DNA from: Candidatus Harrisonbacteria bacterium
GTDB lineage: Bacteria; Patescibacteriota; Minisyncoccia; UBA6257; 1-14-0-10-44-23
DNA length: 64,000 nucleotides
Assembly (NCBI GenBank): GCA_023255625.1
Contig: JAHFLF010000001.1
Coordinates: 94,255 to 158,254, forward strand
Reading direction: 5' to 3'
The position numbers and the translations under genes were made by a program. The notes under the pieces are model-generated. The model did no database searches and was not told the origin of the DNA. It was given only the letters and a program-made list of their open reading frames with translations. Below are positions 7,206 to 55,009 of the stretch, piece after piece (position 1 is the stretch's first letter; the number at the start of each line of letters is the position of its first letter).

Positions 7206-7453
7206 GCTCTTTAACATAACTTCAATCCTGCGCTCGCGCTGGGATTCTTTCAACCCTGAAGATGTGCGCTCCGATTTTTAAGACCATCCCGAAGGGTGAG
7301 CCCGGTCTTAAAAATCGGAGCGCACATCAAAAAATCAATCCCTGCTCTGGCGCAGGAGGGAGTCGTCAACAATTAGTTGACGGATTGCGATGCCCGGAAG
7401 AATTTCGGGCAAGGTCACGCGATCTCAAAAACACTCTGCCCTGCTCATTGCAT
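7206..7453 (+). promoter_or_regulatory. boxA-containing structured leader or ncRNA
   Basis: GCTCTTTAACA at 7206-7216, perfect 25-bp stem 7261-7328, several further hairpins. Confidence 0.6.
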
Positions 7454-7609
7454 ATGAGCAAAGCAATTGGTTTGATGATCGTGATCATCACCTTCGCCAT
7501 CTTTCTGCCGAATGTCTTTCATTCGGTTGAAACTCTGCTCCTGAAGTCGCTCGAGCTTGCCAACGCATCGCTCGACAACCTCGCTTCTATTGGACACCTT
7601 GTTCAGTAG
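7454..7609 (+). CDS. small membrane protein (51 aa)
   Basis: MSKAIGLMIVIITFAIFLP...; followed by a terminator. Confidence 0.6.
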   Translation: MSKAIGLMIVIITFAIFLPNVFHSVETLLLKSLELANASLDNLASIGHLVQ

Positions 7610-7615
7610 AGCTTG

Positions 7616-7654
7616 AGCACACAACCACCCTTCCGGTGGTTGTGCTCGTTTTTA
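7616..7654 (+). terminator. intrinsic terminator
   Basis: GAGCACACAACCACC...GGTGGTTGTGCTC followed by GTTTTT. Confidence 0.7.
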
Positions 7655-8194
7655 CGAATTCTCAATCCAAAATCGCATTTTGCGCGGCGTACCCTCGCCG
7701 ACGTCAAGAACATTTTCAAGTTTACCACCGCAGGATTCAATAATTTTGCGTGACGGCTCATTTGTTTCGTCGCAGGTAAGCAGCACCCGCGTAATTCCAA
7801 GAGAACGAGCAATCGGAAGCGCCTGCTCTAAAAGTAATTTTCCATATCCTCTCCTGCGTGCCCATGGCACAACATCATAGCCAATGTGCCCGCCCGTGCT
7901 CGCTAATTTTTCACTCAGCACGTGGCGGATGCTTACCCGACCCGCATACTTACCGTCAACAATCAGCCAGCGAGTGGTTGCCGGAACATGCTCACCATCT
8001 TTCGTGCGCCACCCATTATCAAATCGGTCGTGAAGGTGTGTAGCAAAATCCCGCTCCACCTCTTCAAGGTTGACTTCTAGATACCGCCCTTCTTGCTGAA
8101 GCTCCCGAATACCAGCAATATAACTTTCCTTATACTGCTGCGATGGCGGAACCAGCTGAACTCCTTTTTCAAAATTTTCTAATGTTCCTGACAT
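7652..8194 (-). CDS. GNAT-family N-acetyltransferase
   Basis: GGHIGYDV, RRRGYG, LTCDETNEPSRKIIE; likely start at 8194 because the upstream extension is tRNA-like sequence. Confidence 0.88.
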   Translation of the reverse strand: MSGTLENFEKGVQLVPPSQQYKESYIAGIRELQQEGRYLEVNLEEVERDFATHLHDRFDNGWRTKDGEHVPATTRWLIVDGKYAGRVSIRHVLSEKLASTGGHIGYDVVPWARRRGYGKLLLEQALPIARSLGITRVLLTCDETNEPSRKIIESCGGKLENVLDVGEGTPRKMRFWIENS

Positions 8195-8196
8195 AG

Positions 8197-8425
8197 TGCG
8201 CGTTGCTGGGATCGGACCAGCGGCCTTTTCAACTTCGCCCCGTACCGTGATGGGCATACTTTGTGGGCACTACAGGGATTGAACCTGTGACCTTTCCAAT
8301 GTGAATGGAACGCTCTACCACTGAGCTAAGTGCCCATCTCTGGTACGGGGTGTGAACCCCAGTAGTAGAACCTACTGGTTCACTACGGGGCACGGTGAAA
8401 CGCTCTACCACTGAGCTAAAGACGC
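8197..8425 (-). pseudogene. split outer tRNA-Val-like gene enclosing the intact tRNA-Val
   Basis: 5' half GCGTCTTTAGCTCAGTGGTAGAGCGTTTCA (8425-8396); 3' half TGAAAAGGCCGCTGGTCCGATCCCAGCAACGCGCA (8231-8197). Confidence 0.65.
8264..8335 (-). tRNA. tRNA-Val(CAC), intact
   Basis: GGGCACTTAGCTCAGTGGTAGAGCG-TTCCA-TTCACAT-TGGAA...GGTTCAATCC...GTGCCCA. Confidence 0.95.
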
Positions 8426-8580
8426 CCTTCTTCGCTTGGTTTGGTAACCAAGCTTCGCAAGGGCAAGCAACAATGAATATCACTGCTTGTCCCTCCGGAG
8501 CTTGAGTGCCAACGAGAGCGTAGGGGGAAGCTAAAGACGCCCTACTTCGCTAAACCCTACTGAAGCTTCGCAGGGCAAGC
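8414..8580. repeat. cluster of three CTTCGC...GCTTCG REP-like hairpins with a duplicated tRNA 5' end
   Basis: AGCTAAAGACGCCC...CTTCGCT...AAGCTTCGCA..GGGCAAGC twice, with an inverted copy between. Confidence 0.7.
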
Positions 8581-8622
8581 GTAGAACGAGTATAAACAAA
8601 AGAAACCCTTTATTCAAGCAAA

Positions 8623-9663
8623 TCAAACATGCAAACTAAGTGCATTTTCTTCGTGCATTCTTTTTAAATCATCAATTGAAGTCGGCTTATCAATTCCCGG
8701 ATATTCAGCCGTATTATCTGATTCCCACAGGCGAATCGGCAATAACTGAACTCCCTCTTTGATGCTTTCCAGAGAAACTTCTGTTGCGTCCTCACCAAAT
8801 CGAATACCGTGGAGTTGATACATACCACCTTTCAAAATAATAGGCTTGTTATCTTGAACCGCCGATTCTAAAGCAATAAATGACCATTCCTGCCCAACTT
8901 TTTTCAGAGCGCCCAGCAAACGGCCTCCTGCATATAACAACACGCGGTTTTTCTCCTCCCCAGCTGCAATGACATGATAGGCTTCAGCATTTTCACAAGC
9001 GCAAAAATCATATGTGCGAATTCTTTTAGCGCTATCAAGCTCGTATGGCGCCGACAACAATTGAATTCCGGAAACGGGAATGGCATTATCTAAATCGTAG
9101 TGCCTGGCTATCTCAGGATCAATCCCTTTAAGATCAAAGCTGGAGATAATACCCATAGGATAATACTCAAGTAACATTTTTTGAATCTCTTGCCCCTCTT
9201 TTTCAGAAAAAAGATTGCCATACACTCCAAAATTACCGCCAATAAGTCGCCCCATTTCTCTCCGCTCACCATACCCCCGATACAACCCTGACATAATGGG
9301 ACCGGCTAAGCTATTCATAATACGGTTAGCGCTGGGATGATCTCTCCAATAATCAAAAGTGAGGGTTAGTACTGATAGAGCGAGGCCGAGATCTTGCCTA
9401 TCATAAACAAGTCCGAGAATCGCTGATTCAACAGATTCAAGAAATTTAGATACCCCCTCTTTTTCTTCCAACTGGTGCAAAGAAAATTTCTCCCAAGGCC
9501 CTACAAAATGGCTTTTCAAAAGGATTGCATCGAACGTAGCAATATCGGCAATGCCGAGCCGATGTAGCCTATCAACCAATTCCGGAGACTCTTCAACATT
9601 AATAAGTTGCTCCACCGCCTTCTTGCTTTCAACTGGTTTTTCAAAAGGATTATCGTGATCCAT
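8623..9663 (-). CDS. hypothetical protein
   Basis: 346-aa ORF. Confidence 0.65.
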   Translation of the reverse strand: MDHDNPFEKPVESKKAVEQLINVEESPELVDRLHRLGIADIATFDAILLKSHFVGPWEKFSLHQLEEKEGVSKFLESVESAILGLVYDRQDLGLALSVLTLTFDYWRDHPSANRIMNSLAGPIMSGLYRGYGERREMGRLIGGNFGVYGNLFSEKEGQEIQKMLLEYYPMGIISSFDLKGIDPEIARHYDLDNAIPVSGIQLLSAPYELDSAKRIRTYDFCACENAEAYHVIAAGEEKNRVLLYAGGRLLGALKKVGQEWSFIALESAVQDNKPIILKGGMYQLHGIRFGEDATEVSLESIKEGVQLLPIRLWESDNTAEYPGIDKPTSIDDLKRMHEENALSLHV

Positions 9664-9689
9664 ATAATGATACTAGCTGATTACCGCCA

Positions 9690-9724
9690 AAACAAAAAGA
9701 CCGTCAACGACGGTCTTTTTGTTT
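9690..9724. terminator. terminator after rplL
   Basis: AAACAAAAAGACCGT-CAACG-ACGGTCTTTTTGTTT. Confidence 0.8.
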
Positions 9725-10962: not shown

Positions 10963-11223
10963 GACAATATACTAGAAAGTTTCGTAAAGGTCAACTCGCC
11001 ATCTCCGCAAACTAGGGGCAGGAAAGCGAAGCGGGTCCGGTCAGCAAGTAGCCGACCGGACCAGAACTTCAAGAGAGTTTTAAAATCAGGTATCTCTTGA
11101 TTACCCTTGCCGGAGGTTACCGGCGATGACTGCTCCTCTGTTTGGAGTAGCAGTGCCGAGGAGACCGACGGTAGTAAGGCGTCGTCGGTCTTGTGAGCCG
11201 CGGCAGTGGATGCCGCCGCCTCA

Positions 11224-11397
11224 TCAGAACGACCGCCTAGCCACTGCCGGCCGATGACACTGCTGCGCCATCGGCTTCTTGGTTGTCGCCTTGGGCCGAG
11301 CGACTGCAGGGCTCTGCGCAGCGGCCTTCAGTGCAGCAGCCCGCCGCTGAACCACGATCCGCCTCCTTGCCGCCAGGAAGTGATCGGCGCGACTCAC
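11224..11397 (-). CDS. possible small basic orphan protein (57 aa)
   Basis: GTG start overlapping the upstream stop (GTGA); MSRADHFLAARRRIVVQRRAAALK... Confidence 0.35.
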   Translation of the reverse strand: MSRADHFLAARRRIVVQRRAAALKAAAQSPAVARPKATTKKPMAQQCHRPAVARRSF

Positions 11398-11627
11398 GCG
11401 GACACCGAGGGCAGGACATCCACCCTCCCGATCCTGATCTGGGATGAGTCAGTCCTCATCTTCTCCGGGATGACGCCATCCGGATAGAACTGCTGGACCC
11501 GGTCCTCCATCGCCACCTCCACCGGCGGCGACTCCCGCGGATCCGCCGCTTCCAGAGCGAATCCTGCCGCGAGCGTCAGCTCGGTACGCACCCTCACGGC
11601 AGCCACACTGTCTCTCCCTCTCTTCAT
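11394..11627 (-). CDS. small orphan protein (alternative SD-led start at 11510)
   Basis: ATG after the structured leader; GGAGGTGGCG-ATG at 11510. Confidence 0.4.
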   Translation of the reverse strand: MKRGRDSVAAVRVRTELTLAAGFALEAADPRESPPVEVAMEDRVQQFYPDGVIPEKMRTDSSQIRIGRVDVLPSVSA

Positions 11628-11825
11628 CGCGCATCCTCGCTTTCTTTGTATGCGCGGTTGTCCCTGCTCGCCTGCCTCCCGAAAGGCAGATCTAATCCCA
11701 ACGAGCTTGGACGGATGCTCCGTTCTTCTAATAATTTCAAAAAAACGAAACATCCGTCCAATTAAGGACTTCAATGTGATTCAAAGAACTAAATCAGTTA
11801 TACATCTATTACTAGTTACTGTCAA
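11628..11825 (-). promoter_or_regulatory. sigma70 promoter, boxA-like motif and long-stem leader
   Basis: TTGACA-17-TATAAC; GTTCTTTGAA at 11789-11780; 24-bp G-U stem 11707-11761. Confidence 0.65.
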
Positions 11826-12545: not shown

Positions 12546-12546
12546 A

Positions 12547-24700: not shown

Positions 24701-24830
24701 CAACAAAAAGCGGCAAAATATATTGCTCGCTTCAATCCAGATCTAAACGCGCGATTTTCGACTATCCTCACGCTCAGATCCAAACTCAATGCTCTATGAT
24801 TACTTTAGCACTGATTGAGCGCCTTGTAAA
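24701..24830 (-). ncRNA. promoter-hairpin-terminator RNA motif, copy 2
   Basis: TTTACA-17-TAAAGT; 18-bp stem enclosing AGGATAGTCGAAAATCG; terminator. Confidence 0.65.
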
Positions 24831-24836
24831 TGTTCG

Positions 24837-24867
24837 CGGGCCGGCACACCTTGCGGTGGCCGGCCCG
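24837..24867 (-). terminator. GC-rich hairpin after orphan gene
   Basis: CGGGCCGGC...GCCGGCCCG. Confidence 0.55.
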
Positions 24868-24875
24868 GAATTGCT

Positions 24876-25349
24876 TCATGGGTCTCTCCTTGTTGCTTGA
24901 GCTACGAGCGGCGCCAAGACCCTCGTCAAGCTCTTGGCGGCTGCGCCACTGCAGTCGATAGGGGCAACCAAACTACTAAGCGCATCAAGCCACTCCGGGT
25001 CTTGAGGGGTAGTAACCAACATGAATAGCTGGCAAAGCACCTTCCCTCTCGAGCCATCGCTCGGTCGCCCATACTCTAACGCCTCAACGGTATCCTGCAA
25101 GGAACCCCAGAACATGTGAATGCAGGAGTTGCTAGCAGGCCACTCGTGGGCACAACCGTCATGGCTCTCAGCGATTGTCCTCTGAGTCTTGCCATCGTTG
25201 AACTCAAGGCGGGCCCGGCCGTTGCCGTCTTTCAAAAATCCGACAACGAAGTACGGGAAACCGTCACCCATGGGCCCGGTTCGGATCTTCCGCGTCGCCA
25301 CAACCTCCCATCCGTCGAACGCCCGAATGCTCTTATCGATCTTGCTCAT
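24876..25349 (-). CDS. orphan protein, SD-led
   Basis: AAAGAGGTGGACA-ATG; 157 aa. Confidence 0.6.
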   Translation of the reverse strand: MSKIDKSIRAFDGWEVVATRKIRTGPMGDGFPYFVVGFLKDGNGRARLEFNDGKTQRTIAESHDGCAHEWPASNSCIHMFWGSLQDTVEALEYGRPSDGSRGKVLCQLFMLVTTPQDPEWLDALSSLVAPIDCSGAAAKSLTRVLAPLVAQATRRDP

Positions 25350-25371
25350 TGTCCACCTCTTTAGTTTTGGA

Positions 25372-25501
25372 GAAAAAACAAAAAGAGCCCTCAACGCGAG
25401 TGCTCAAATACAGATCCTAAAGCGCGATTTTCGACTATCCTCGCCGTAAGACCTACATTCAATGACAAAATAAGATTAGCATATCATAGCCAATCTGTCA
25501 A
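25372..25501 (-). ncRNA. promoter-hairpin-terminator RNA motif, copy 3
   Basis: TTGACA-17-TAATCT; 16-bp G-U stem; same GAGGATAGTCGAAAATCGCGC core as copy 2. Confidence 0.65.
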
Positions 25502-25634: not shown

Positions 25635-26339
25635 CTACACCAACGGCCTGCGTTGCTTTTCAATAATTTCAAGTGCTTTTTTGGCTGCGTCTACCTCGCC
25701 GTCTTGTTTGGATGGCCCGCTCCCCTGTGCAACCAGTTTGTCACCAAAATACACGCCAATCGTAAACATTTTTTTGTGGTCAGGCCCTTCTGAAGATAAT
25801 ACTTTGTATACCGGCGTAACTTTAAGCGAGGCCTGCACCTTTTCTTGCAGCAAACTTTTTGCGTCAACATGAAGCGCGTTACGGATAATATCCTCAAGCC
25901 GACTCGTCACAAAGGTGTTAATAAACTTTTTGGCCGCTTTATACTCCCCGTCTAAATAAATGGCGCCAATGAGTGACTCAAATGCATTGGCTAGAATAAC
26001 CTCACGGGCACGCCCGGTGTCTTTCGCCTCACCGCGAGAAAGCAAGACGGCTCCGTCAATCCCGATGCCGCGGGCAACTTCAGCAAGCGTTACATAGTTA
26101 ACGAGCGCAGCACGCACCGAAGTCATCCAGCCCTCTTCTTTGTCTGGGTAGCGATTAAACAGCTCCTCGGTAATCACAAGCTCAAGCACGGCGTCGCCCA
26201 AAAATTCCAGCCGCTCGTTGTTGGCTATCTTCCACTCCGGATGCTCGTTTAAGTAGGAGCGGTGCGTGAGCGCCTCCTGGAGGAGAGCGACACTTGAGAA
26301 CTTATATTTGATTGTTTTCTGGAATTCTTCTTGTTGCAT
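25635..26339 (-). CDS. rnc: ribonuclease III
   Basis: ALTHRSY, NERLEFLGDAVLEL, C-terminal dsRBD. Confidence 0.98.
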   Translation of the reverse strand: MQQEEFQKTIKYKFSSVALLQEALTHRSYLNEHPEWKIANNERLEFLGDAVLELVITEELFNRYPDKEEGWMTSVRAALVNYVTLAEVARGIGIDGAVLLSRGEAKDTGRAREVILANAFESLIGAIYLDGEYKAAKKFINTFVTSRLEDIIRNALHVDAKSLLQEKVQASLKVTPVYKVLSSEGPDHKKMFTIGVYFGDKLVAQGSGPSKQDGEVDAAKKALEIIEKQRRPLV

Positions 26340-26423: not shown

Positions 26424-26861
26424 CTAAGAAGATTTCTCTTCTTCTTTCATTTTCTGATACACCGTGCCGAGAACGCCATTAATGAATTTGCCCGAGTTTG
26501 GCCCGCCATAACTTTTTGCCAGCTCAATCGCCTCGTCAATCGCTACTGCTGGCGGCACCTCTTTGCGATCCGCATACTTCAATTCATAAAGTCCGATCCG
26601 AAGCGCATTACGATCAATTACTGCGATTTGTTCAATCGGCCACTCCGGCGCGGCTTCAACAATCAATTTGTCAATTTCAACCAGATGCTCGACAATACCG
26701 TGAGCAATCTTGGCCGTAAATTCTTTTTCTCTCTCAAGCCCAGGCCCAAACTCCATGCTATTGCGCGCGATAATATCGTCAAGATTAATTTTGCGGCCTT
26801 CAAAATCCCACTCGTAGAGGGATTGAAGAACTATTGAGCGGGCGAGTTGTCGTGATGCCAT
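26424..26861 (-). CDS. nusB: transcription antitermination factor NusB
   Basis: [32 protein letters not shown]. Confidence 0.97.
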
Positions 26862-27106: not shown

Positions 27107-27293
27107 ATAAACTAGTTAATCGGTTAGTCAGTTAGTTGGTTAGTTAGTTTAAAACTCGGAAGCAATGCAAAAAAGGATACCAGGAAGATAAAAAAGATGC
27201 AAATTTGGAAATTTATTTTGTCGGGGCGGCGCGCTTCGCGCACCGCCCCGACGACTGCCCGCCTTGGGCGGGCTTACCCCCTGGAGAGCGGAG

Positions 27294-27776
27294 CTACTTC
27301 GGCCGGCTCGGCTCCTCCAGGATGATCGGGAGCCGAACCGCTTCTTCGGACAGAGCCCCGTCCGAGGAATACTCGTACCACTTCGGTCCGCCGCTCCTGA
27401 TACGAATGCCGACGATGCCGCCGTCAGCCGCGATCTCCAGCGGAAACCTGCCGAAGCCCTCATCCTCGTAGACGACCGTCCTGTCTCCGCTTGGCAGCCA
27501 GAGACCCTTCTTCCAGCAGATGACCCATTCGTGGGTCCCGGGCACGGACCAGACATAGAAGGTCGTCGCGGCCTTGTTCGTCTTGGCCATCCGCCGGACC
27601 TCCGAGAGGAAGGTGCAGTGTCCAACGAACTCCGCCGGTAGCTCCTGGACGATCCGCCAGTCCGTCTTCTCCTGTGCCTGCAGCTCGTCGCGCCACTTGC
27701 CCGGCCACACGAAACCGAAGAAGGCCACGACCACTGCAACTCCGAGAATCCTTCCGAACAACGAACTAATGGACAT
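27294..27776 (-). CDS. orphan membrane-anchored protein, SD-led
   Basis: AGGAGGTCTCAAG-ATG; N-terminal TM. Confidence 0.6.
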   Translation of the reverse strand: MSISSLFGRILGVAVVVAFFGFVWPGKWRDELQAQEKTDWRIVQELPAEFVGHCTFLSEVRRMAKTNKAATTFYVWSVPGTHEWVICWKKGLWLPSGDRTVVYEDEGFGRFPLEIAADGGIVGIRIRSGGPKWYEYSSDGALSEEAVRLPIILEEPSRPK

Positions 27777-27880
27777 CTTGAGACCTCCTGCCCCGCGAAA
27801 CCCGCCATGGGCTCGCTTTGGGACAAACTCACCATGCAACTTTTTTAACTTTTTTGCAACCGAGTAGGAAAATACCTTGA

Positions 27881-33581: not shown

Positions 33582-33615
33582 ATGCCGAAGGGTCGTCCGT
33601 AGACGACCCTCGGTG
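33582..33615. terminator. hairpin between convergent thrS and orphan cassette
   Basis: CCGAAGGGTCGTC...GACGACCCTCGG. Confidence 0.55.
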
Positions 33616-33689
33616 CTCGCCGGATTTTGCCGACGACGCACGGACTAGCCGTACGATTTTCATGACGAATCCAACATCTCTACCTCCTT

Positions 33690-34001
33690 CTAGAAAAGAA
33701 TCTCCTCGACTTGGAAGATCTGGAAGCGCCTTGTGGTGGCGTAGTCCCCCTCTAGCATCAGGAGGCCGTCACCAATCTGCGGATTAAAGTCTCCGCAGTG
33801 AAGAGGTTGCCCCTGCTCAAGGATTCCGAGAGAGGGCTTCAATCGCTGACACACATCGAAGGTATTGTCTTGCACTGCGTGAAGCTCGTGCTCGTGCAGA
33901 CTACCTCGAATGTGCGCCCTCCCAATTGAACCAACCCTGAGGAGCAAATCCCCAAAGAGCGGGCGCAGCTTAGGAGTTACTGCTATGATCCAAAGTCTCA
34001 T
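33690..34001 (-). CDS. orphan protein, SD-led
   Basis: AGGAGGTGCC-ATG. Confidence 0.5.
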   Translation of the reverse strand: MRLWIIAVTPKLRPLFGDLLLRVGSIGRAHIRGSLHEHELHAVQDNTFDVCQRLKPSLGILEQGQPLHCGDFNPQIGDGLLMLEGDYATTRRFQIFQVEEILF

Positions 34002-34329
34002 GGCACCTCCTGGTTTCGTGGAAGAACATCTCCTCGTGTCTGGTATCTAGTTCGACGACCACCAGAACACTGGAGCAAGTGGTTCGTTCCGCGCGTCTTC
34101 CTTCGCGCGATACCATGGGCAGCTTCTCTTTAGACTGCAGCCGAGCGATCACTCGCCAAGCCGCCGCATCTTGTCGTTCGTAGAGCACGACCGCCCTCGT
34201 CCCGACAAGCTGCTTGAGCTCGGCCACCGTGACTGCACCACAGAAACCGACGCCGCACGAGTGTCCTGGTGCAACTCGTCCGCTATCTCCTCGTTGAGTG
34301 ACAAGCCAAAACAACGCCGCCTCTTCCAT
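33970..34329 (-). CDS. orphan protein, SD-led
   Basis: AGGAGGGAGGAGTTC-ATG. Confidence 0.5.
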   Translation of the reverse strand: MEEAALFWLVTQRGDSGRVAPGHSCGVGFCGAVTVAELKQLVGTRAVVLYERQDAAAWRVIARLQSKEKLPMVSREGRRAERTTCSSVLVVVELDTRHEEMFFHETRRCHETLDHSSNS

Positions 34330-34342
34330 GAACTCCTCCCTC

Positions 34343-34741
34343 CTACTTTGTCTTCATGAGACTCTGTGCGAGAAGAGGGGGTGGCCCATCGCCGTACACC
34401 GCCCAGTCCAGCGGAAAGACCTTGCCTGCTCCCTCTGGACTCACCGTGAAGATGACGAGAAGACCGGGTTCTGCCTTGCCGACGATCTGCGCCGCAACTA
34501 CCGCACTGGACCCGCGTGGAACATCCAGCGGATACCCCTTGAACTGCGATATCGAGCCCGTGACGAGCCCGCTATACGGCTGGCTGATCGTCACCTCGCC
34601 CTTCTTGGCCGGCTTTGGCTTCTGCTCATCCAACTGCTTGCGCAGACGAACATTCTCCTCATTGAGAAAGAGCGCTGCGAGAAACGCTCCGACAGCGAAC
34701 ACTCCGACGACCACCATTAGATCGCCTGTAATGTCTTTCAC
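34343..34741 (-). CDS. orphan membrane-anchored protein, SD-led
   Basis: AAGGAGGCAATC-GTG; promoter TTGACT-17-TATTCT at 34813. Confidence 0.55.
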   Translation of the reverse strand: MKDITGDLMVVVGVFAVGAFLAALFLNEENVRLRKQLDEQKPKPAKKGEVTISQPYSGLVTGSISQFKGYPLDVPRGSSAVVAAQIVGKAEPGLLVIFTVSPEGAGKVFPLDWAVYGDGPPPLLAQSLMKTK

Positions 34742-34919
34742 GATTGCCTCCTTACCGAAACGACAATGCGCCGTTTGGAAAATCAGAATATAATATTTTT
34801 TATATTTAGTCAATTTTCCCAGTTGCACTACGGCTAATTTTTTGCTAAAATATATCTATCGTTTTTAAATTTCTCTTACGCATTAACCGACTAACTGTCG
34901 ACCGACTAACCGACTAACT

Positions 34920-39863: not shown

Positions 39864-40343
39864 ATGAAAAAAAATCGCGCTATTCTACTGGCCTCGACCC
39901 TCTTAGCCCTAATATTAATCTCTGGTAGCCAAATAGCACTGGCAGTCGGAGACGCCAGTCAGAAACCACTGCCGGGCGCAGATGTTCAAGCCAGCGACCT
40001 CGGTAACGGCATTATTCCGGATTGCGAGCCGAGTAACACCAATATCGGCCCAGGCGAACCCGGTTGCGGCCTGGACGACGCAATTCAGGTAATTTATAAC
40101 ATCATTAGCTACATCAGCTACATTATTATCCCCATCGCCGTCTTGTTGCTCGGTTATGCCGGATTTACTATAATGACTTCAGCGGGTAACAGCGAAAAAG
40201 TTACTCAAGCATGGAAGATGATCCGGGTAACCGCGATTGGTCTGGCGATTATATTTCTTTCGACGCTGATTGTCAGATACATTTTTAAAGCCCTGGATGT
40301 AAATACCCAAAAATTTGGCCCGACCAATATAGAAATCAAATAG
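39864..40343 (+). CDS. VirB2/TrbC-like pilin
   Basis: YAGF.IMTSAGNSEKVTQAWK helical hairpin. Confidence 0.75.
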   Translation: MKKNRAILLASTLLALILISGSQIALAVGDASQKPLPGADVQASDLGNGIIPDCEPSNTNIGPGEPGCGLDDAIQVIYNIISYISYIIIPIAVLLLGYAGFTIMTSAGNSEKVTQAWKMIRVTAIGLAIIFLSTLIVRYIFKALDVNTQKFGPTNIEIK

Positions 40344-40355
40344 AAATACAATAAC

Positions 40356-40700
40356 ATGCGCCGATTTTCATTATTTTTTTTCACTCTGCTTCTGCCCGTC
40401 TTTGCATATGCTATTACCGACCCCAAAAAAGATGGCATTCCCCTGCCCGACCCGCTCAATGTAAATAGCTTGCCGGAATTATTTGACAAGATCTTCCGCT
40501 TTGCTGCTATTCAAGTTGGCCCTTTCATCGTAATTATCTTCGTGCTGGTCGGCGGCTATCAAATGATTTTCTCCGGCGGTGAGGCGGAAAAATTCTCAAA
40601 AGGAAAAAATACGATTGTTTACACAGTTATCGGCTACGCCCTGCTCTTAATGTCTTACGGCATTGTAGACATAATCAAATCAGCATTAACCGTAAAATAA
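40356..40700 (+). CDS. VirB2/TrbC-like pilin
   Basis: GGYQMIFSGGEAEKFSKGKNTIVYTVIG. Confidence 0.78.
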   Translation: MRRFSLFFFTLLLPVFAYAITDPKKDGIPLPDPLNVNSLPELFDKIFRFAAIQVGPFIVIIFVLVGGYQMIFSGGEAEKFSKGKNTIVYTVIGYALLLMSYGIVDIIKSALTVK

Positions 40701-40706
40701 ATTGCT

Positions 40707-41066
40707 ATGAGCAAAGCGTTTCGGTCTCTCGGCGTAAAAATTTTCTTCTGTAGCGTCATCCTTTCGCCCGTTTTCGCCCCAGTTTTTACCCTTGCCGAAG
40801 ATGACCCGCTGAAGGGTCTGCCAAAAGATGCCGCAGGCGTTATGCAGGTTTTAGGAAATATCACCAATTGGCTATTCACTGGTATTCTGATAATTTCTGT
40901 GATAATGATTATAGTAGCCGCATATAAGTATCTGTTTAGCGGCGGCAGCGAAGAGGCAACCTCTGCGGCTCGCAAGACGATTGTCTACGCCGTGATTGCT
41001 CTGGCGGTCGCGATGCTGGCCAAAGGCGTGGCTCCACTTGTAAAAACACTATTATCAGTAAAATAA
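40707..41066 (+). CDS. VirB2/TrbC-like pilin
   Basis: AAYKYLFSGGSEE...ARKTIVYAVIA. Confidence 0.78.
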   Translation: MSKAFRSLGVKIFFCSVILSPVFAPVFTLAEDDPLKGLPKDAAGVMQVLGNITNWLFTGILIISVIMIIVAAYKYLFSGGSEEATSAARKTIVYAVIALAVAMLAKGVAPLVKTLLSVK

Positions 41067-41072
41067 CAGTAT

Positions 41073-41453
41073 ATGAAAAAAATCATATTTATTCTGCCGC
41101 TCGCTGTAATGTTTTTAGCATTAATCGTACCAATGACTCCTGCCCTTGCGATTGATTGTCCTGGCGGAGGCAGTACTGCCGGCGGTCAGCCCTGCCAATT
41201 ACCAACCAACGCAAATCTTCAGCCAAATGTTTTGCTGGCAACGATAGAGGAAATTACTGACTGGATGTTTACCGGACTCTTGGTACTTGCGGTTGTTATG
41301 TTGATTATCGCCGCCTATCACTATCTTTTCTCCGGAGGCAGCGAGGAGGGAACGCAAAAAGGCAAGAACTATATCATCTACACAGTTATTGCAATTGCAG
41401 TTGCAATGTTAGCCAAAGGAATTACCTTCATCGTCTACCAGATTCTGAAATAG
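41073..41453 (+). CDS. VirB2/TrbC-like pilin
   Basis: AAYHYLFSGGSEEGTQKGKNYIIYTVIA. Confidence 0.78.
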   Translation: MKKIIFILPLAVMFLALIVPMTPALAIDCPGGGSTAGGQPCQLPTNANLQPNVLLATIEEITDWMFTGLLVLAVVMLIIAAYHYLFSGGSEEGTQKGKNYIIYTVIAIAVAMLAKGITFIVYQILK

Positions 41454-41561
41454 AAAAATTGACTTTAAAATCGAACGGGCCCGACTGGCAACATACTCCC
41501 TTGCGGGAGACGCCAATCGGGCCTCGTTTTGTGCTGCGCGTGGTAGTGGAGCTCTACCGCG

Positions 41562-42044
41562 CTACTTCTTCTTCTCGAGCGCCCTGGCCTCGAACTGCTG
41601 GTCAGGGAGTCCGGCTTCGACATAGAAGACCGGATAGCGAGCCGTCTCGAAGACGGAGTTCTCGCCCAGGATGGCTCCACCATCCTCGAGCATGATGCGG
41701 AACTTCCGCTTGCACACTCGTTTGCCGATCTCCTGCACATCCTCGATCGTGTACGAGAGACCGGCCGCTACCTCTACACGAGCCCACTGCCCGGGTTGCA
41801 GCGGGAAAGCCGCAACGGCTCCCGGGAACGCCAGCGTGTACTCCCCTCCGTCGAGATTCGGAGGTACGCTCTTCACAGCGCTGGGCCGCCAGGAGACCAG
41901 CACTGCAATTCCGGCTCCAAGAAGGAGTAGGGTGATCGCGGCGGCCAGCCCCATGAAAAGCTTCGTCCGCCCGAAACTGGCCACGCTCACGCAATCCTCC
42001 ACATCATCGGGTGCATCTGCGGAGTTGGCAGGATTGCTACTCAT
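41562..42044 (-). CDS. orphan membrane-anchored protein, SD-led
   Basis: GGAGGTTCGACAAC-ATG, ATGA-coupled to the upstream gene. Confidence 0.55.
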   Translation of the reverse strand: MSSNPANSADAPDDVEDCVSVASFGRTKLFMGLAAAITLLLLGAGIAVLVSWRPSAVKSVPPNLDGGEYTLAFPGAVAAFPLQPGQWARVEVAAGLSYTIEDVQEIGKRVCKRKFRIMLEDGGAILGENSVFETARYPVFYVEAGLPDQQFEARALEKKK

Positions 42045-43294
42045 GTTGTCGAACCTCCAGTCGGCACAGACAGACCGCCGGCCGTCAGACCGGCGGCAAG
42101 CCGCGCCGCCGCCGAGACCGATCCATCGTCAGCTACGACAACTTTCAGATCTGCCACCTTGATGCCTGCCTGCGCAAGCGCGCCGGCATAGGCAAGATTC
42201 GCCGTGACACCAAGCTTGACAGCACTCTCCGTCATCGCCGTGACACCAGGAGCCGTCTGCTCCGCAGCTTTGGCATCCTGTTGCGACTTCAACACCTTCT
42301 GCGCATACTCGATGCTCTTAGGGTCATACACCACCCCGATGAGCTCGCAGTTGTCGAAGGTGCATCCGATGTGCAGCTCGTGGTGTGACAGAGCGGTTTC
42401 AGAAATCCCGCCCTGATTGAACAGCACATTCATCTGATCCAGCGCTGCACGTACTGCAACTGCGTGCTTGCCGTACCAGACAAGCACATTGCCAGGCAGA
42501 ATCTCAACGAGTGACTGTCCGGCGGCAACACCCTCAACTCTTCGCCGGAATGCCGCGTCCTTGTGCAACGGAATGTGCAGTGACAACTCCGACTCGACGA
42601 ACAGCGCAAGCGCATGCCTGTTCTCGTCAAGATCCTTGCGGCTCATCTTCGCAAGCATCGACGTCAGGAGCCCCTTGATGGGACCCCTGATACCGACCTC
42701 CACGTGATGCGCGGCAAAGTTCCTCTGCCTCCTCTTCGCACCCTCGATCACCCAGTTGCCGTAGACGTTCAACCCATCCGAGTCAGCGATACGCGGGTCC
42801 GGGCAGACGGTCACCTGGAAGGTGACTTTGACAACTTCATGAGTCGTGAGCTGCTGTTCCACCTCGATCGTTATCGGCAACGGATTTGTCTCGATCTGAG
42901 CCATCCTGTTACCGATCCCGACCTTGTGCAGGCCAGGCCCGTGTGTCGCAGAGCGGATCTTGCCGCCACTGCTCTGAACCGCATACGATCGTCCACCGAC
43001 TGAACGGACGAACATAGCGAGCCAGAACCAGAGAACGCCAAGATAGGCGGCACCCAGACCCACGATGACCATGCCGAAAATGGCGCAGCTCATCCAGATG
43101 AATCCGCACAAGATCGAGACCAGAGCAATCGCGTAGGCGATACCCAAGCCCTGGAAATGCGGAGTCAACTCTCTCTTGAGGAAAGGCTCAATCTCCTCCC
43201 CCTCAAGAACCGTGCAGGTCACGAAAGCGTGCCCCGCCGGTGCAACTGTTGTCCCGGGCGATACTACCGCCGGGGGCGCAACATGACTAGTCAT
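42041..43294 (-). CDS. membrane protein with possible SPFH/band-7-like domain, SD-led
   Basis: GGGAGGTAGCG-ATG; two TMs then GPGLH...VVKVTFQVTV. Confidence 0.55.
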   Translation of the reverse strand: MTSHVAPPAVVSPGTTVAPAGHAFVTCTVLEGEEIEPFLKRELTPHFQGLGIAYAIALVSILCGFIWMSCAIFGMVIVGLGAAYLGVLWFWLAMFVRSVGGRSYAVQSSGGKIRSATHGPGLHKVGIGNRMAQIETNPLPITIEVEQQLTTHEVVKVTFQVTVCPDPRIADSDGLNVYGNWVIEGAKRRQRNFAAHHVEVGIRGPIKGLLTSMLAKMSRKDLDENRHALALFVESELSLHIPLHKDAAFRRRVEGVAAGQSLVEILPGNVLVWYGKHAVAVRAALDQMNVLFNQGGISETALSHHELHIGCTFDNCELIGVVYDPKSIEYAQKVLKSQQDAKAAEQTAPGVTAMTESAVKLGVTANLAYAGALAQAGIKVADLKVVVADDGSVSAAARLAAGLTAGGLSVPTGGSTT

Positions 43295-43581
43295 CGCTAC
43301 CTCCCAGCCCGTAGAACGGGCCGTCGTTAGAAACCAACGGCCCAAACCGGGCCAGCCACGCCGTACGCCAGCGTTGGCCCTATTCGACTGTCCCATGCAG
43401 GCCCCACACGAGGCCAACATTGCACGAACAGGATTTTTGCGGACCAGATAAAATGCCCCGCAAAAATCCTGTTCGTGCCCTTGAACGCTCTTTAGTTTTC
43501 AAAGTACATTCGGAAAATTCCTGTTTTAGACAGAACTCCCCACCAACAGCATATTTAGCATATTTTCATACCATTTGTCAA
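43295..43581 (-). promoter_or_regulatory. promoter, boxA-like motif and long-stem leader
   Basis: TTGACA at 43581; TGTACTTTGAAAAC at 43508-43495; perfect 21-bp stem 43422-43478. Confidence 0.65.
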
Positions 43582-43799
43582 TCTTTTCCATCGCCAGTTC
43601 AACAAACCGGGTTAGCATTTAACCAATGCGAAGTCCGTACCATAGGGAGCAGTAAAAGGTATCCCTGCTCATCTTGGCGGGAACTCTGGGTTTGCGGGTC
43701 TTTATATTTATCCAACAGCTCAACTATACACAGCCCCGCTATACCTGTGGTATACTAAATTAAAGACATTTATTAATGCTTTAATATTAAAATTATTCT

Positions 43800-44144
43800 A
43801 TGAAGAAAGTTGTTACATTCATCTCATTATTAGTCGTTAGCTTTATGCCAATGGCGGCTCTAGCCATCGACATTCCGGCCACTACCCCTCCGCCGGGCAT
43901 CCGCAGCTTTGAAGGAATCCTTGGTGTCATGAACACAATCATCGACTGGCTCTTTACCGCACTCATGGTGTTCGCCGTGATCATGATTATCTACGCCGCA
44001 TTCAGCTATCTAACCGCCGGTGGTGATGAGGAGAAGATCAGCAAGGCCCACAAGACAATTGTTTACGCAGTTGTCGCGATTGCCGTCGCCTTCCTTTCCC
44101 GCGGCATCTCCTTCGTTGTTCAGCAGCTGCTCGGACAGGGATAG
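43800..44144 (+). CDS. VirB2/TrbC-like pilin
   Basis: YAAFSYLTAGGDEEKISKAHKTIVYAVVA. Confidence 0.8.
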   Translation: MKKVVTFISLLVVSFMPMAALAIDIPATTPPPGIRSFEGILGVMNTIIDWLFTALMVFAVIMIIYAAFSYLTAGGDEEKISKAHKTIVYAVVAIAVAFLSRGISFVVQQLLGQG

Positions 44145-50224: not shown

Positions 50225-50446
50225 AGAGGTTGCTAGATGCTGCTAGAGGTTGATAGGTAAACTTAGAGGAAACTAGCTTGGCGCGGCCCGAGTACGGGCC
50301 GCGGCGGTTTCGTTCTAACCCGAACCCCTTGCTAGCATCCTCTAGCAGCATCTAGCACCCTCTAGCAGCCTCTAGCAGCCTCTAGCAGCCTCTAGCAGCC
50401 TCTAGCAGCCTCTAGCAGCCTCTAGCAGCATCTAGCAGCATCTAGC
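50225..50446. repeat. 10-bp tandem array (TCTAGCAGCC, about 11 units) with inverted copies
   Basis: Array at 50332-50446; inverted units at about 50225-50250. Confidence 0.9.
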
Positions 50447-50524
50447 CCCGTTGACTTTATAGGCGAAAAAGAATAATTTAACGCTTGAGAGGCGTACTCT
50501 CAAGGGAATGGAAAGGAGCCACCA

Positions 50525-51163
50525 GTGCTGGGATTCATCTGGGTCGTACTCATCGTTATCTGTTTCGCGGCGGCCATTTATCTCGGCGAATGCACCAGGT
50601 ATGACAGGAAACATGGCGTAGGTGACGGGATCATCAACGAGAGACTGTCCTTCTTCTTTGGGATCCTCTGTTTCCTGATGTGCTTCGCACCACTTCTGTT
50701 CGAGTTCGTGCCCTTCTCGGGAAAGGGCAGCTATGTCGTCGCGGTCAGAAACGACGGCAGCTACACCAAGTACCCGTACGGCTGCTGGGAGTGGACGGAT
50801 GGAGAGCTCTACACAGTGTGGAGTCCTCTACCTGAATCCAGAGAGATCCTGCTAAATCCGGACGATCCGGGCACCAAGCTCCCATACTCCGTCACTCTGA
50901 AGATATCGGATCCGGGCATCTACTTCAACCAGAAGGAAATGGATTGGAAGAAGAAGCAAGCGCTTTTCCACTTCTTCCTGGTCCAGCTCGAGCAGCCGGG
51001 TTGGGAACATGACTTCCGGGAGTTCACCGATCCGGCCAACCAGGAGCAGCAGCGCCGCTTCGTGGAACTCGTCCTGCCCTGGCTCAACCAGCGTCTGGCC
51101 AAGTACGGCCTGGGCGCTACGGACGCCTCGTTCGCGGCTCGAACAACGCCGCCAAAGGACTAG
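50525..51163 (+). CDS. orphan membrane protein, SD-led
   Basis: TTGACT at 50451; GAAAGGAGCCACCA-GTG; two TMs. Confidence 0.6.
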   Translation: MLGFIWVVLIVICFAAAIYLGECTRYDRKHGVGDGIINERLSFFFGILCFLMCFAPLLFEFVPFSGKGSYVVAVRNDGSYTKYPYGCWEWTDGELYTVWSPLPESREILLNPDDPGTKLPYSVTLKISDPGIYFNQKEMDWKKKQALFHFFLVQLEQPGWEHDFREFTDPANQEQQRRFVELVLPWLNQRLAKYGLGATDASFAARTTPPKD

Positions 51164-51179
51164 CGATCTAGTCCTTGCT

Positions 51180-51220
51180 GCCGCGGGTTGGCGAAAGCCA
51201 ACCCGCGGCACATCTTTTTT
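51180..51220 (+). terminator. intrinsic terminator
   Basis: GCCGCGGGTTGGC-GAAA-GCCAACCCGCGGC then a T-run. Confidence 0.75.
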
Positions 51221-51527: not shown

Positions 51528-53066
51528 ATGGAATTTCTGACCAACCCCTTTGTCTGGGTATTTTTAGTCTTATTTTTAGTCTTCGGTATCGCGGCCGGTT
51601 ACTACTTCCGCCACTCGCGCGGAGCTAAGAACGCCGGATCAGTCGAGCAGCAAACACAAGCCAAACTCGCCGAAGCGCAAAAGCAGGCCGAGCATTTTGT
51701 CGCTGACGCAAAATTAAAAGCCGCCGAGCAAATCAGCGAGGGGCAAAAACAAGAACGCGAACGGAAACAAAAATTAGACCAGCTTGAAGAGCGACTTTTA
51801 AAACGCGAAGAGTCTTTGCAGGCGCAACTGCTAAATCTGACTACCAGAGAGACGAAGTTCAACGAAGAAATTAAAAAGGTAGAACAGGTCAAAGAGCAGG
51901 CCGAGCTCGCCTACGCTAAGGCAACTGCTCACCTCGAGCAGATTACCGGCATGAAGCAGGAGGATGCCAAGGCCATGATCATTAAGGATGTTACCGAGAA
52001 GTACAAGGGCGATCTGGTTACCAGTATCCAAAAAGTTGAACACGAGCGACGCGACGAGATTGAAAAGAAGGCCTCGGAGATTATTACCACCGCGCTGATG
52101 CGTTATGCACGCAGCCAAGTCGCCGATGTTACTACCAGTGTCTTCCATCTGCCGAGCGAGGACATCAAGGGTAAAATTATCGGCCGTGAAGGGCGCAATA
52201 TTAAAGCACTGGAGCGAGCAACCGGAGTGGAAATTGTCATTGACGAAGCGCCGGAATCAATCATCCTCTCTTCTTTTGATCCGCTGCGCCGTGAAATCGC
52301 CCGCATGACGCTCGAGCGGATGATTAAAGACGGCCGCATCCAGCCGGCGCGCATCGAAGAAACTGTCGAACAATGTAAAACTGAACTCATCCGCCGCATG
52401 CAGGAAATTGGTGAACAGGCCACGCTCGAGGTCGGCATCGCCGGCTTTCCGAAAGAAATTCTGCAGCTGCTCGGCCGGCTACACTTCCGCACTAGCTACG
52501 GACAAAATGTGCTGATGCACTCTTTGGAGATGGCGCACATCGCCGGTATGATTGCCCGCGAACTCGGCTGCAATGTTGATATTGCCAAAAAAGGTGCGCT
52601 CGTCCACGACATCGGCAAGGCCATCAGTCATGAAGTCGAGGGTACGCATGTGGAACTTGGCCGGAAAATTCTGGCGAAATACGGCGTGGAGCAAGCGGTA
52701 ATCACCGCAATGGAAAGCCACCACGAGGACTACCCGTTTACCAGCCCGGAGGCCTACATTGTTACGGCGGCCGATATTCTTTCTGCAGCCCGCCCTGGCG
52801 CTCGCCGAGATACCGTCGAACAGTACATAAAACGGCTGAAAGACCTGGAGGAGATCACCAGCAAGTTTGCGGGCGTGAAACAGGCCTACGCTCTTTCTGC
52901 CGGCCGTGAGGTGCGCGTCTTTGTTGTACCGGAAAAAATTGACGACTTTGCCGCACTGCAAATGGCCCGCGATATTGCCAGCCGTATCCAAACCGAGATG
53001 AAGTATCCGGGTGAGATTAAAGTAAATGTTATCCGCGAGACCCGGGCGGTGGAATACGCGCGATAG
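51528..53066 (+). CDS. rny: ribonuclease Y
   Basis: TM, coiled coil, KH (IIGREGRNI), HD (HDIGK). Confidence 0.97.
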   Translation: MEFLTNPFVWVFLVLFLVFGIAAGYYFRHSRGAKNAGSVEQQTQAKLAEAQKQAEHFVADAKLKAAEQISEGQKQERERKQKLDQLEERLLKREESLQAQLLNLTTRETKFNEEIKKVEQVKEQAELAYAKATAHLEQITGMKQEDAKAMIIKDVTEKYKGDLVTSIQKVEHERRDEIEKKASEIITTALMRYARSQVADVTTSVFHLPSEDIKGKIIGREGRNIKALERATGVEIVIDEAPESIILSSFDPLRREIARMTLERMIKDGRIQPARIEETVEQCKTELIRRMQEIGEQATLEVGIAGFPKEILQLLGRLHFRTSYGQNVLMHSLEMAHIAGMIARELGCNVDIAKKGALVHDIGKAISHEVEGTHVELGRKILAKYGVEQAVITAMESHHEDYPFTSPEAYIVTAADILSAARPGARRDTVEQYIKRLKDLEEITSKFAGVKQAYALSAGREVRVFVVPEKIDDFAALQMARDIASRIQTEMKYPGEIKVNVIRETRAVEYAR

Positions 53067-53537: not shown

Positions 53538-53628
53538 TTTTCTGTGGTATACTAAATATCAGTCAGGGGCCCGTTCTGTGAGGGAACGGGTTTTTGATTT
53601 CCAGACAGATTTGATATACAATTTCTAT

Positions 53629-53829
53629 ATGGCCATTACAACCGCAACTAAAAAGTTTTTCAAAGTTACTCTGATTGTGATCGTCGTGTTCGGCATGCTC
53701 GCAATCTACCTGGCCCCGCTTTTTAGCGGCGGCGTACAGCAGCGAGTACAGCAGCAGCCGGTCGACTTCACCGGCCCCACCGGTGCGCCCTTCGTAAATG
53801 GCCCGTCGGCTCCCCCGCCGGGAAAATAG
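53629..53829 (+). CDS. small membrane protein
   Basis: TM plus Pro-rich tail. Confidence 0.55.
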   Translation: MAITTATKKFFKVTLIVIVVFGMLAIYLAPLFSGGVQQRVQQQPVDFTGPTGAPFVNGPSAPPPGK

Positions 53830-53918
53830 TCAGTTAGTTAGTTGACGGTTAGTCGGTTAGTTAGTAAGCACCGGCAAACCTTGCAGTTGAGGATATATCT
53901 GGTAGAATAATCTGCATT

Positions 53919-53989
53919 GCGGAGTTCGTATAGTGGTAATACACCTCGTTGCCAACGAGGAGCGACGGGTTCGATTCCCGTACTTCGCT
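53919..53989 (+). tRNA. tRNA-Gly(GCC)
   Basis: CCTCG-TT-GCC-AA-CGAGG; GGTTCGATTCC. Confidence 0.95.
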
Positions 53990-54113
53990 CACTTCTTCGC
54001 CCTTGGTAGGGCTACGAAGTGCAAGCACTTCAGAAAAATAGTGTTTGTACTTCAAATAATATAACTACAACAGCGAAGAGAAGTGTCCTTCGAAGCTTTA
54101 TGCGAAGAAGGAC
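53990..54113. repeat. inverted pair of CTTCG...GCTACG REP-like hairpins
   Basis: Hairpins at 53990-54026 and 54085-54113. Confidence 0.65.
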
Positions 54114-54115
54114 GA

Positions 54116-54328
54116 ATGGTAAACCCTCTTTTGCTTATTGGTTCTACTCCTGATATCAAAACAAGATTAGCGTCACACAACTCCGGAGCCAACAAGCATA
54201 CGAGTAAATTCAGGCCGTGGAAAATTGTATGGGTATGCGGATTTTTGAGCAAAGAAAAAGCATTTTCATTTGAGATGTATCTAAAAACCGCATCGGGAAT
54301 AGCATTCCGTAGAAAACGCCTTCTTTAA
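54116..54328 (+). pseudogene. GIY-YIG nuclease lacking the N-terminal aromatic motif
   Basis: IGST.DIKTRLASHNSG...TSKFRPWK...FEMYLKT. Confidence 0.7.
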
Positions 54329-54414
54329 AAAACACAGTCCCCAACACGACCATGTCGCGTCAGGGACTAGGCTGGGGCGGCTGGGGCGCCCCGAGGATCG
54401 AGAGCTGCTAGCTG

Positions 54415-54897
54415 CTAGGGCAAAGTCATCAATGCTTTCCCCAGAATCGCGAGCTTCACGCACTCCGGCAGGACGAAGACATTGTGGTTCTGGCCGATCG
54501 CGTCGACAGTCCCCAGAGTGGCTCTGCGCCAACGCGGGTCCCACTCCTTCAGACCGCGCTTCTTCCGACACAGCTCGGCGGCCCTCCTGGTTCGGAAGAG
54601 CGCCACGATGTCGGTAGTGCGCCCCCGAAGCATGGAACTGTTCATCTGCCAGAACTGACGACCGTACTTCGTCTGCGGGTAGAAGAGAACCAGACCGCCG
54701 ATCTGTCCACCTCCGCCGATCCCGACCATCGAACCACCCACAAATTGGTGGCCGACCTTCATACTGGCCTTGGCCCTTCCGGCAACCTTCTTCACGGTTG
54801 GGTCGCCAAATTCATTGATGGCGTCGGACATCAGGTAGACCGACCCGGAGCATGTCACTGCGAACAGACGCTTTAGCTGCTGCTTTGGGCTCTTCAT
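54415..54897 (-). CDS. orphan protein, SD-led
   Basis: TTGACA at 54947; TAGGAGGTGCTCC-ATG. Confidence 0.6.
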   Translation of the reverse strand: MKSPKQQLKRLFAVTCSGSVYLMSDAINEFGDPTVKKVAGRAKASMKVGHQFVGGSMVGIGGGGQIGGLVLFYPQTKYGRQFWQMNSSMLRGRTTDIVALFRTRRAAELCRKKRGLKEWDPRWRRATLGTVDAIGQNHNVFVLPECVKLAILGKALMTLP

Positions 54898-55009
54898 GGA
54901 GCACCTCCTATAACTACTTATTTACATCAAAAAAATAATCTTGTCAATTTCTGACACTAACGACCAAAGCAAGAATTCTCTTTATATATATTTTTGCTAT
55001 ACTGAATGT

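Follow-up and report, generated by a model that had tools for sequence, protein, structure and literature searches.

Loss of the CCTCCT anti-Shine-Dalgarno (anti-SD) sequence from the 16S 3´ end is known in part of the Parcubacteria, where helices with the Shine-Dalgarno (SD) motif should not form (Tsurumaki et al. 2022, PMC9297842; this and the other papers are cited from the accessible parts of their texts). Organisms without the CCUCCU anti-SD have core genes in which the SD is scarce (Amin et al. 2018, PMC6107228; Estrada et al. 2024, PMC10783764), and the SD is missing from nearly every such organism (Amin et al. 2018, PMC6107228). In Bacteroidota, rpsU is autoregulated through an SD that is read only by ribosomes lacking bS21 (PMC10783764). 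Here we describe a class of SD-led, GC-rich genes in a Candidatus Harrisonbacteria genome (G000), starting from a window of 64,000 nt (G000:C8:94255-158254) in which a first-pass annotation had noted seven islands of such genes. The genome and its order share the 16S loss described for Parcubacteria (PMC9297842, which in its accessible text covers rRNA only and mentions no SD-led gene class), and core SD scarcity is alike. Yet 11% of the genes in G000 bear a canonical, maintained SD, which makes it an exception to the rule of no SD before open reading frames (ORFs) as given in the accessible text of PMC6107228. As with Bacteroidota rpsU, the SD is limited to a special subset of an SD-poor genome; there, however, the 16S retains a hidden anti-SD and the regulation concerns few genes, whereas in G000 the anti-SD is gone and about 100 fast-evolving genes carry the motif.

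Phage morons and auxiliary metabolic genes are autonomous promoter-ORF-terminator units that carry lone nucleotide-synthesis steps and transcription factors. The class resembles them in its own promoters and terminators and its deviant composition, but lies in a cellular chromosome, in slots inherited among core genes; with a PHROG match in 1 of 93 non-enzyme proteins and core genes as flanks, a phage origin was rejected. Integron cassettes are swappable, promoterless ORFs with end hairpins of a shared attC family. Swappable cargo and end hairpins are found in the class as well, but each class unit has its own promoter, the units are dispersed and their ends share no sequence family. No integron integrase was found in the window, where the tyrosine recombinase scored 108 against a cut-off of 265 (TIGR02249) and matched best as XerC or XerC/D-like.

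Two gene classes and a ribosome without the anti-SD

The genome of this tiny, host-dependent bacterium derives from groundwater metagenomes and comprises 931,659 bases in 12 contigs (94.9% complete). Genome size, gene content and the taxa of related protein clusters assign it to Patescibacteria. Genes were called with our own two-model caller, which gave 974 genes with uncertain starts and short ORFs; 117 low-scoring calls were kept outside both gene classes. GC content at third codon positions (GC3) fitted two components, at 0.49 (89% of genes) and 0.745 (11%), a genome-wide bimodality that the first-pass annotation had proposed as a check; the second class holds 106 genes in 62 kb. Using starts picked by a coding model that does not see the SD, and counting an SD when it was at least 5 nt long, we detected one before 43 of 84 genes with GC3 of at least 0.65 and before 10 of 683 with GC3 below 0.62; allowing any near start raised the former to 65 of 84. 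By class label, which uses the SD itself for a few low-scoring ORFs, the counts were 50/92 and 9/724 (Fisher p 8e-45). As a composition control we took the 796 in-frame start codons inside these GC-rich ORFs, and only 30 of them were preceded by an SD (4% background). The logo of the motif was AAGGAGG(T/G) at a spacing of 4-7 nt.

Two congeners, G001 and G002, were analysed as separate 20-kb stretches, with genes and slots spanning the edges lost. They showed the same split, with an SD at any near start in 53/62 versus 43/648 genes of G001 and 65/78 versus 41/610 genes of G002. Contig C3 of G001 was dropped from the SD-split, homologous-pair, codon-usage and leader-pairing analyses and then served as a foreign-DNA control: despite 65% GC, an SD was found in 59 of its 235 genes, rarer than in the G001 class. 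The same contig inflated the G001 class counts in the logo, BLAST-match, A/U-run/lipobox and relatives'-cargo tallies. C3 (L067, L125-L135; 224 kb) has matches in G000 for 4 of 241 genes, carries GcrA, RepA, YqaJ and RecD2 genes and resembles a large phage or plasmid from a different bacterium.

Each unit follows one anatomy: an AT-rich sigma70 promoter, a GC-rich leader, the SD, the ORF and a strong 3´ hairpin. In 21 strong-promoter units the spacer is 27% GC, and GC climbs above 50% at about +1. The 3´ hairpins have a median of -25 kcal/mol for 69 class genes versus -11 kcal/mol for 120 others, start-region folding is -10.1 versus -5.0 in core genes, AAAA/TTTT runs occur in class coding sequence at 0.3-0.7 of expectation versus 2-3, and the stop codon is mostly TAG (55/106). 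The ORFs had been described as often membrane-anchored; an N-terminal transmembrane (TM) segment is predicted in 16/74 class proteins versus 168/743 others, which is no enrichment. For core genes, we noted a -10 box 6-7 nt ahead of the ATG in 87 of 748 (at those two positions, versus ~5 per position elsewhere), the sequence mark of a leaderless mRNA. By sequence pattern, core starts are leaderless or AU-rich and unfolded, and such start regions suit a ribosome without an anti-SD. Collectively, these patterns indicate two translation codes in one genome, and the second expression grammar proposed in the first-pass annotation thus extends across the genome and to both congeners.

The 16S rRNA of G000 ends in GGATCAATTAAAC, with CCTCC absent, and the anti-SD is likewise absent in all 21 related genomes with the 16S 3´ end inside the fetched loci. 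A pattern search found the terminal 16S helix in 197 of 301 order genomes, and behind it the sole anti-SD was that of contig C2 of the G000 bin. Class leaders pair at -11.4 kcal/mol with a canonical tail versus -1.9 kcal/mol with the tail of their own ribosome. Contig C2 (L002, 3.9 kb) carries a 16S 3´ end that is divergent and split by an intron; its tail, GGAACATCTCCTTTT, holds a partial anti-SD and pairs with class leaders at -9.4 kcal/mol. On this account, a second 16S gene or the host could supply the cell with small subunits that bear an anti-SD, and these would translate the class. We consider this very improbable: C2 is small, its 16S is 85% identical to the main one over 165 nt, its tRNA-Ile duplicates a G000 copy that is 97% identical in G001 and G002, no such end was found in the other 300 order genomes searched, and there is one 23S copy only. 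C2 is most likely a stray, mis-binned contig.

Alternatively, the cell itself may translate the class as a separate regulon, for example for attachment, with a protein, an RNA acting in trans or a modified ribosome as reader of the GGAGG, or with the motif serving in folded leaders. Native promoters and terminators, stable slots and purifying selection (below) fit this explanation, one unit sits in a pilin array, and Parcubacteria strongly conserve helix 26, the rRNA element in contact with the SD helix (PMC9297842). The logo and spacing, however, mirror the canonical 16S tail; CsrA was searched for and not found (nor was Rho), and the only candidate for an adapter RNA supplying an anti-SD was the antisense of a class SD, so no credible one emerged. 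Such a regulon would also leave lipoboxes without Lgt and lone pathway steps unexplained. We therefore regard it as rather unlikely, and the life-stage regulon suggested earlier fails as a sole explanation for an SD without an anti-SD.

Inherited slots and changing cargo

Positions between core genes that hold a class unit in G000 were filled by an SD-led GC-rich gene in 18 of 38 cases in G001 and 23 of 41 in G002 (32 and 29 further slots were undetermined at stretch edges), compared with 12/320 and 16/286 control junctions; the remaining scorable slots, about half, were empty. The proteins themselves are far less conserved, with BLAST matches in G001 and G002 for 10 and 8 of the 106 class proteins versus 533 and 490 of 748 core proteins. 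Homologous class pairs are mostly 26-61% identical and kept the SD in both partners in 12 of 16 cases. In all 11 pairs compared, the nonsynonymous difference (pN) was below the synonymous one (pS), the latter near saturation. This is purifying selection, and suggests that some ribosome makes the class proteins. Codon usage of the class is nearly equal in the three genomes (root mean square (RMS) difference 0.04-0.05), while their core genes differ by 0.10.

These features could be left over from old imports from GC-rich, SD-using donors, some of them Planctomycetota, with slowly decaying signals and no present role. The best hits of PurB are mostly Planctomycetota at 55-60%, and in a tree it falls among them on long branches; about half of the slots are empty in a congener, and horizontal gene transfer and islands are common in Patescibacteria (PMC12455944). 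A codon match to Planctomycetota was rejected, as the class differs from planctomycete purB genes, the only ones compared, by RMS 0.10 and in AAA usage (0.09 versus 0.40), while one dialect is common to three genomes. SD and high GC3 persist while proteins drop to 26-50% identity, Patescibacteria-type PurN and SPFH proteins belong to the class, and promoters are AT-rich up to +1. We find this explanation improbable. Islands of recent transfer match poorly as well, given the shared dialect and no close donor homologues in a search done for 4 of the 106 class proteins; best hits of the enzymes PurB and kynureninase are at 50-60%, those of kynureninase being taxonomically mixed. In G002 PurB is syntenic, at 54% identity beside FolD at 85%. 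Cargo such as PurB came in by ancient import, and other cargo (the 417-aa SPFH protein, PurN) is native to the phylum. The repeated capture proposed in the first-pass annotation holds for the origin of a few cargo genes only, because both the slots and the grammar pass down the lineage. Neither of the two outcomes named there as refuting occurred: core genes seldom carry an SD, and the ORFs do not trace to one high-GC donor or phage.

PurN illustrates how a gene may change grammar. It is SD-less inside purF-purN-purD operons of three order genomes (G003, G273 and G228) and stands alone, SD-led and with a GC3 of 0.80 in G000 and G001; a motif and a C-terminal extension are common to the G000 protein and those of the SD-less operons. 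PurN of G147 is SD-led. The sole named relative among 14 looked up was from Berkelbacteria, in cluster look-ups that gave a taxon for 1 of 16 proteins. Similarly, PurD occurs in 10 order genomes, of which 5 have it without an SD and 5 behind a full or weak one. With PurN and PurD SD-less or SD-led depending on the genome, genes appear to enter the second grammar within an order unable to pair with the SD.

A Pfam family was found in 16 of 108 class proteins. The named members are PurD, PurN, PurB, the cyclohydrolase half of PurH, PyrE, PyrF, TrpD and kynureninase, and there are also a radical SAM enzyme, two haem-oxygenase-like proteins, a lone RNA polymerase alpha C-terminal domain and a CRP-like regulator. 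PurC, PurM/L, PurE and PyrD were searched for in G000 and not found. The class of the relatives adds PyrD (in G002 the only copy), PgpA, a deaminase and a FliA/WhiG (sigma-28) factor, SD-led in G001 at L088:10940-11719; the taxonomic origin of this factor could point to the host. Class lipoproteins beside leuS in all three genomes keep an invariant T-G-C lipobox at 25-31% identity. Searches of 12 family genomes found neither Lgt nor LspA; the Lgt search detected the Lgt of the candidate phyla radiation in 9 of 251 order genomes, and family f21 has the enzyme. As judged from their sequences, the recognisable products (lone purine and pyrimidine steps, sigma-28, lipoboxes without Lgt and LspA) would make little sense in their own cell.

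Host ribosomes as candidate readers of the class

We propose, with a probability of roughly 0.45, that the class encodes effector transcripts that are exported as RNA and translated by the ribosomes of the host. The SD-blindness of ribosomes across the whole order may then, as tentatively, act as an address label, such that armoured SD-led mRNAs go unread in the cell that makes them and pass to the host. Transcription of the ~100 class genes would be by the cell's own sigma70 polymerase, from AT-rich promoters close to consensus, and would yield GC-rich RNAs free of A/U runs that often begin with a hairpin, end in a strong one and carry an SD predicted to stay unpaired by the home 16S rRNA. 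Home ribosomes would load poorly on the folded starts and leave the RNA free, and its composition might protect it from RNase Y and exonucleases. The RNA would pass to the attached host bacterium, most plausibly through a conserved machine resembling a type IV secretion system (T4SS), and the ribosomes, lipoprotein enzymes and pathways of the host would turn it into effectors. The products would act like phage auxiliary and host-takeover genes, as single nucleotide-synthesis steps, transcription factors, membrane proteins and lipoproteins, and most cargo may evolve so fast as to become orphan while slot and signals persist. Of the origins suggested in the first-pass annotation, translation by host ribosomes draws the most independent support, by inference rather than demonstration.

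A VirB4-like ATPase was found in 12 of 12 family genomes. Three VirD4-like ATPases and a pilin array are also present. Saccharibacteria have an essential T4SS with a pilin array and unknown cargo (Wang et al. 2023, PMC10633639; PMC11665869). The pilin array and VirB4-like ATPase are alike in G000; the saccharibacterial system, in which no coupling protein can be recognised, is believed to serve protein export or DNA import, and RNA for host ribosomes is not proposed in the accessible texts of those papers. How Patescibacteria exploit their hosts, what the essential T4SS carries and what orphan genes do are listed as open questions (PMC11665869).

The same machine could also serve DNA delivery, in which DNA passes to the host (in a conjugation-like way or as injected chromosome pieces) and is expressed there by the host's polymerase and ribosomes. 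VirB4- and VirD4-like ATPases are present, many hosts could use the consensus sigma70 promoters and intrinsic terminators as well as the occasional boxA-like site, and SD, lipobox and cargo are explained equally well. DNA delivery would, however, have no need for GC-rich, A/U-run-free RNA with end hairpins, and every large contig has units dispersed among its core genes; no signal common to the unit flanks was found. A search for a relaxase gave no match, and its controls likewise gave none. DNA delivery thus seems improbable, if marginally less so than old imports.

Several observations weigh against translation by host ribosomes. To our knowledge, no bacterium exports mRNA for translation by another cell. 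Since 92 of 108 class proteins are without a Pfam family, the argument from cargo useful only in a host rests on a minority, and at 95% completeness the absences in G000 are to be read as 'not found'. Lipobox matches number 3 of 74 in the class, one of them doubtful, and the loose rule matches core proteins too (1/743, 2/671 and 4/627). A second 16S end with a partial anti-SD is present in the bin, a quick tree does not group the two PurB proteins as monophyletic, and mis-binning is possible for the G003 pur contig. Coding-region folding beyond composition does not differ significantly from that of core genes (z -1.0 versus -0.7; p 0.32 and 0.15), 5´ hairpins reach z < -2 in only 5/21 and 13/29 units, and neither an export motif nor a tetraloop common to the leaders or trailers emerged, the trailers sharing only U tracts. 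BoxA was rejected as a class feature, being sporadic (4/87 versus 5/442, and 2/188 versus 0/400 with a promoter-anchored pattern).

In the literature searched, mainly open-access, we found no description of an SD-led class in anti-SD-less Patescibacteria or of mRNAs being sent to host ribosomes. The new elements of this analysis are the anti-SD count across the order, slot statistics set against controls, the shared codon dialect, the PurN grammar switch, the lone-enzyme cargo and the test for lipoboxes without Lgt. From sequence alone, the SD/GC3 rule picks out about 100 genes in each genome as candidates for a host-directed set, and recognisable members, such as the planctomycete-like PurB, may hint at the host. 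Were translation in the host true, mRNA transfer between bacterial cells would be a way of life, and this would be a cellular parasite with a phage-like strategy and an effector catalogue legible from sequence; were the cell to read these SDs itself, translation would start in an unknown mode.

Class units in the window

All seven islands are present where they had been reported, at a GC content of 0.52-0.59 (promoters included) versus 0.483 for the window, as are the SDs quoted at 25349, 27776, 34001, 34329, 34741, 42044, 43294, 50525 and 54897. TTGAC(A/T) promoters were confirmed for six (11825, 25501, 34813, ~43581, 50451 and ~54947). Public contigs bridge three islands into core genes with a depth equal to that of the flanks and zero differences (three runs of one study, one possibly the source); the islands are not an assembly artefact. 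None of the 11 class proteins in the window has a Pfam family (E 0.001). The units and the native genes that bear on them are as follows.

11034..11825, minus: unit between trmD and rplJ, promoter TTGACA-17-TATAAC at 11825-11797
11789-11780 and 11761-11707, minus: leader of this unit, with boxA-like GTTCTTTGAA and a long hairpin
11627-11394 and 11397-11224, minus: its ORFs, the first of 77 aa (GC3 0.81, weak GAGG, internal SD start at 11510)
to 11034, minus: its 3´ hairpins
24729..25501, minus: unit with promoter 25501-25473, leader, SD GAGGTG and ORF 25349-24876 (157 aa, GC3 0.67)
24879-24805, minus: SD-led 24-aa ORF in the same unit
27220..27859, minus: unit between dnaE and rpmF, weak promoter TTGCAA-17-CATGGT (27859), 5´ hairpin
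27776-27294, minus: its ORF, SD AGGAGGT, 160 aa, N-terminal TM, GC3 0.82
27273-27257 and 27252-27220, minus: its hairpins
33590..34813, minus: three-gene unit between thrS and an MBL-fold gene, promoter 34813-34785
34741-34343 (132 aa), 34329-33970 (119 aa) and 34001-33690 (103 aa), minus: its SD-led ORFs
33677-33660, minus: SD-led 5-codon ORF, followed by the terminator 33612-33590
41474..43581, minus: two-gene unit inside the T4SS-pilin array, promoter from ~43581, boxA-like site 43507-43498, 250-nt folded leader
43294-42041 (417 aa, SPFH/Band 7) and 42044-41562 (160 aa, TM), minus: its ORFs, terminator 41523-41474
39864, 40356, 40707, 41073 and 43800 (span 39864..44144), plus: native T4SS-pilin genes, PF18895, all above cut-off
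50451..51209, plus: unit between gpmI and rny, promoter 50451-50477, 5´ hairpin
50525-51163, plus: its ORF, SD AAGGAG, 212 aa, TM, SPFH-like (a lead only), terminator 51180-51209 and U tract
54335..54947, minus: unit with promoter from ~54947, short leader, SD AGGAGGTG, hairpins 54392-54374 and 54369-54335
54897-54415, minus: its orphan ORF, 160 aa, GC3 0.76
51528..53066, plus: native RNase Y, which bears on the fate of untranslated RNA
25635-26339 and 26424-26861: native RNase III and NusB, which bear on the same
7206..7648, plus: unit outside the class, boxA-like site, 25-bp hairpin, conserved folded leader RNA at ~7350-7450
7454-7609, plus: its conserved gene for a 51-aa membrane protein, without SD

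Several slots retain their signals while the cargo changes. In the 11 kb unit, the promoter and boxA-like site are kept in G001 and G002 with unrelated cargo; the boxA-like site is kept in the relatives' 42 kb long-leader units as well. In G001, the 11 kb slot holds two tandem units with similar leaders. The SD at 11510 is real, and the start assigned to it is probably internal to the 77-aa ORF from 11627. The 34 kb slot, its promoter and an SD-led micro-ORF of 5-6 codons before the terminator recur in both relatives, with unrelated cargo upstream. The 27 kb gene has distant orthologues in the matching slot of both relatives (shuffle z 6.5 in G001 and 8.3 in G002), with SD and hairpin kept, between flanks that are 81-92% identical. 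The earlier observation that this island has no clear promoter stands, with a weaker one at 27859 to be added; the G001 orthologue has a TTGAC promoter.

The 42 kb slot is filled in both relatives, a similar set adjoins the array in G008, and one public contig bridges the unit; its 417-aa protein is an SPFH/Band 7 member of Patescibacteria clusters. Other units are less widespread: the 25 kb unit has no counterpart between smc and rnc in G001 or G002, the 50 kb site is empty in G001 and G008, and a homology search with the 54.9 kb protein returned only itself. Hairpin leaders had been ascribed to most units, which holds with the 54.9 kb unit as one without. The 63-nt leader hairpin of the 25 kb unit (25464-25402) recurs at its 3´ end (24791-24729, 78%), as if a second, empty unit followed. 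A tandem array of a 10-nt repeat (50330-50447) lies immediately upstream of the 50 kb promoter. The core starts of rplL, hup, mraZ, csp and rny lack GGAGG, as reported.

The 7.2 kb unit had been considered related to the islands; it is a different, native gene outside the class. Its leader RNA (the 7340-7609 region, with L112:4895-5010 and L140:4530-4640) has covarying stems with compensatory change in 5 of 21 pairs, and is a candidate regulatory RNA separate from the SD-led class. Rfam gave zero matches in the window beyond tRNAs. ARAGORN called no tmRNA in the whole genome; its tRNAs include tRNA-Arg(GCG), tRNA-Arg(TCG) and tRNA-Ile(TAT), and the anticodon set would work without inosine and lysidine. 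Contigs C5, C6, C9 and C10 of G000 (2-3 kb) seemingly carry transposase-like genes only, judging by translations, and may be stray. Finally, 18073-19794 and 22898-24637 encode two 575-aa Cys-repeat paralogues without a Pfam match, and two more lie at C8:65361-68862.

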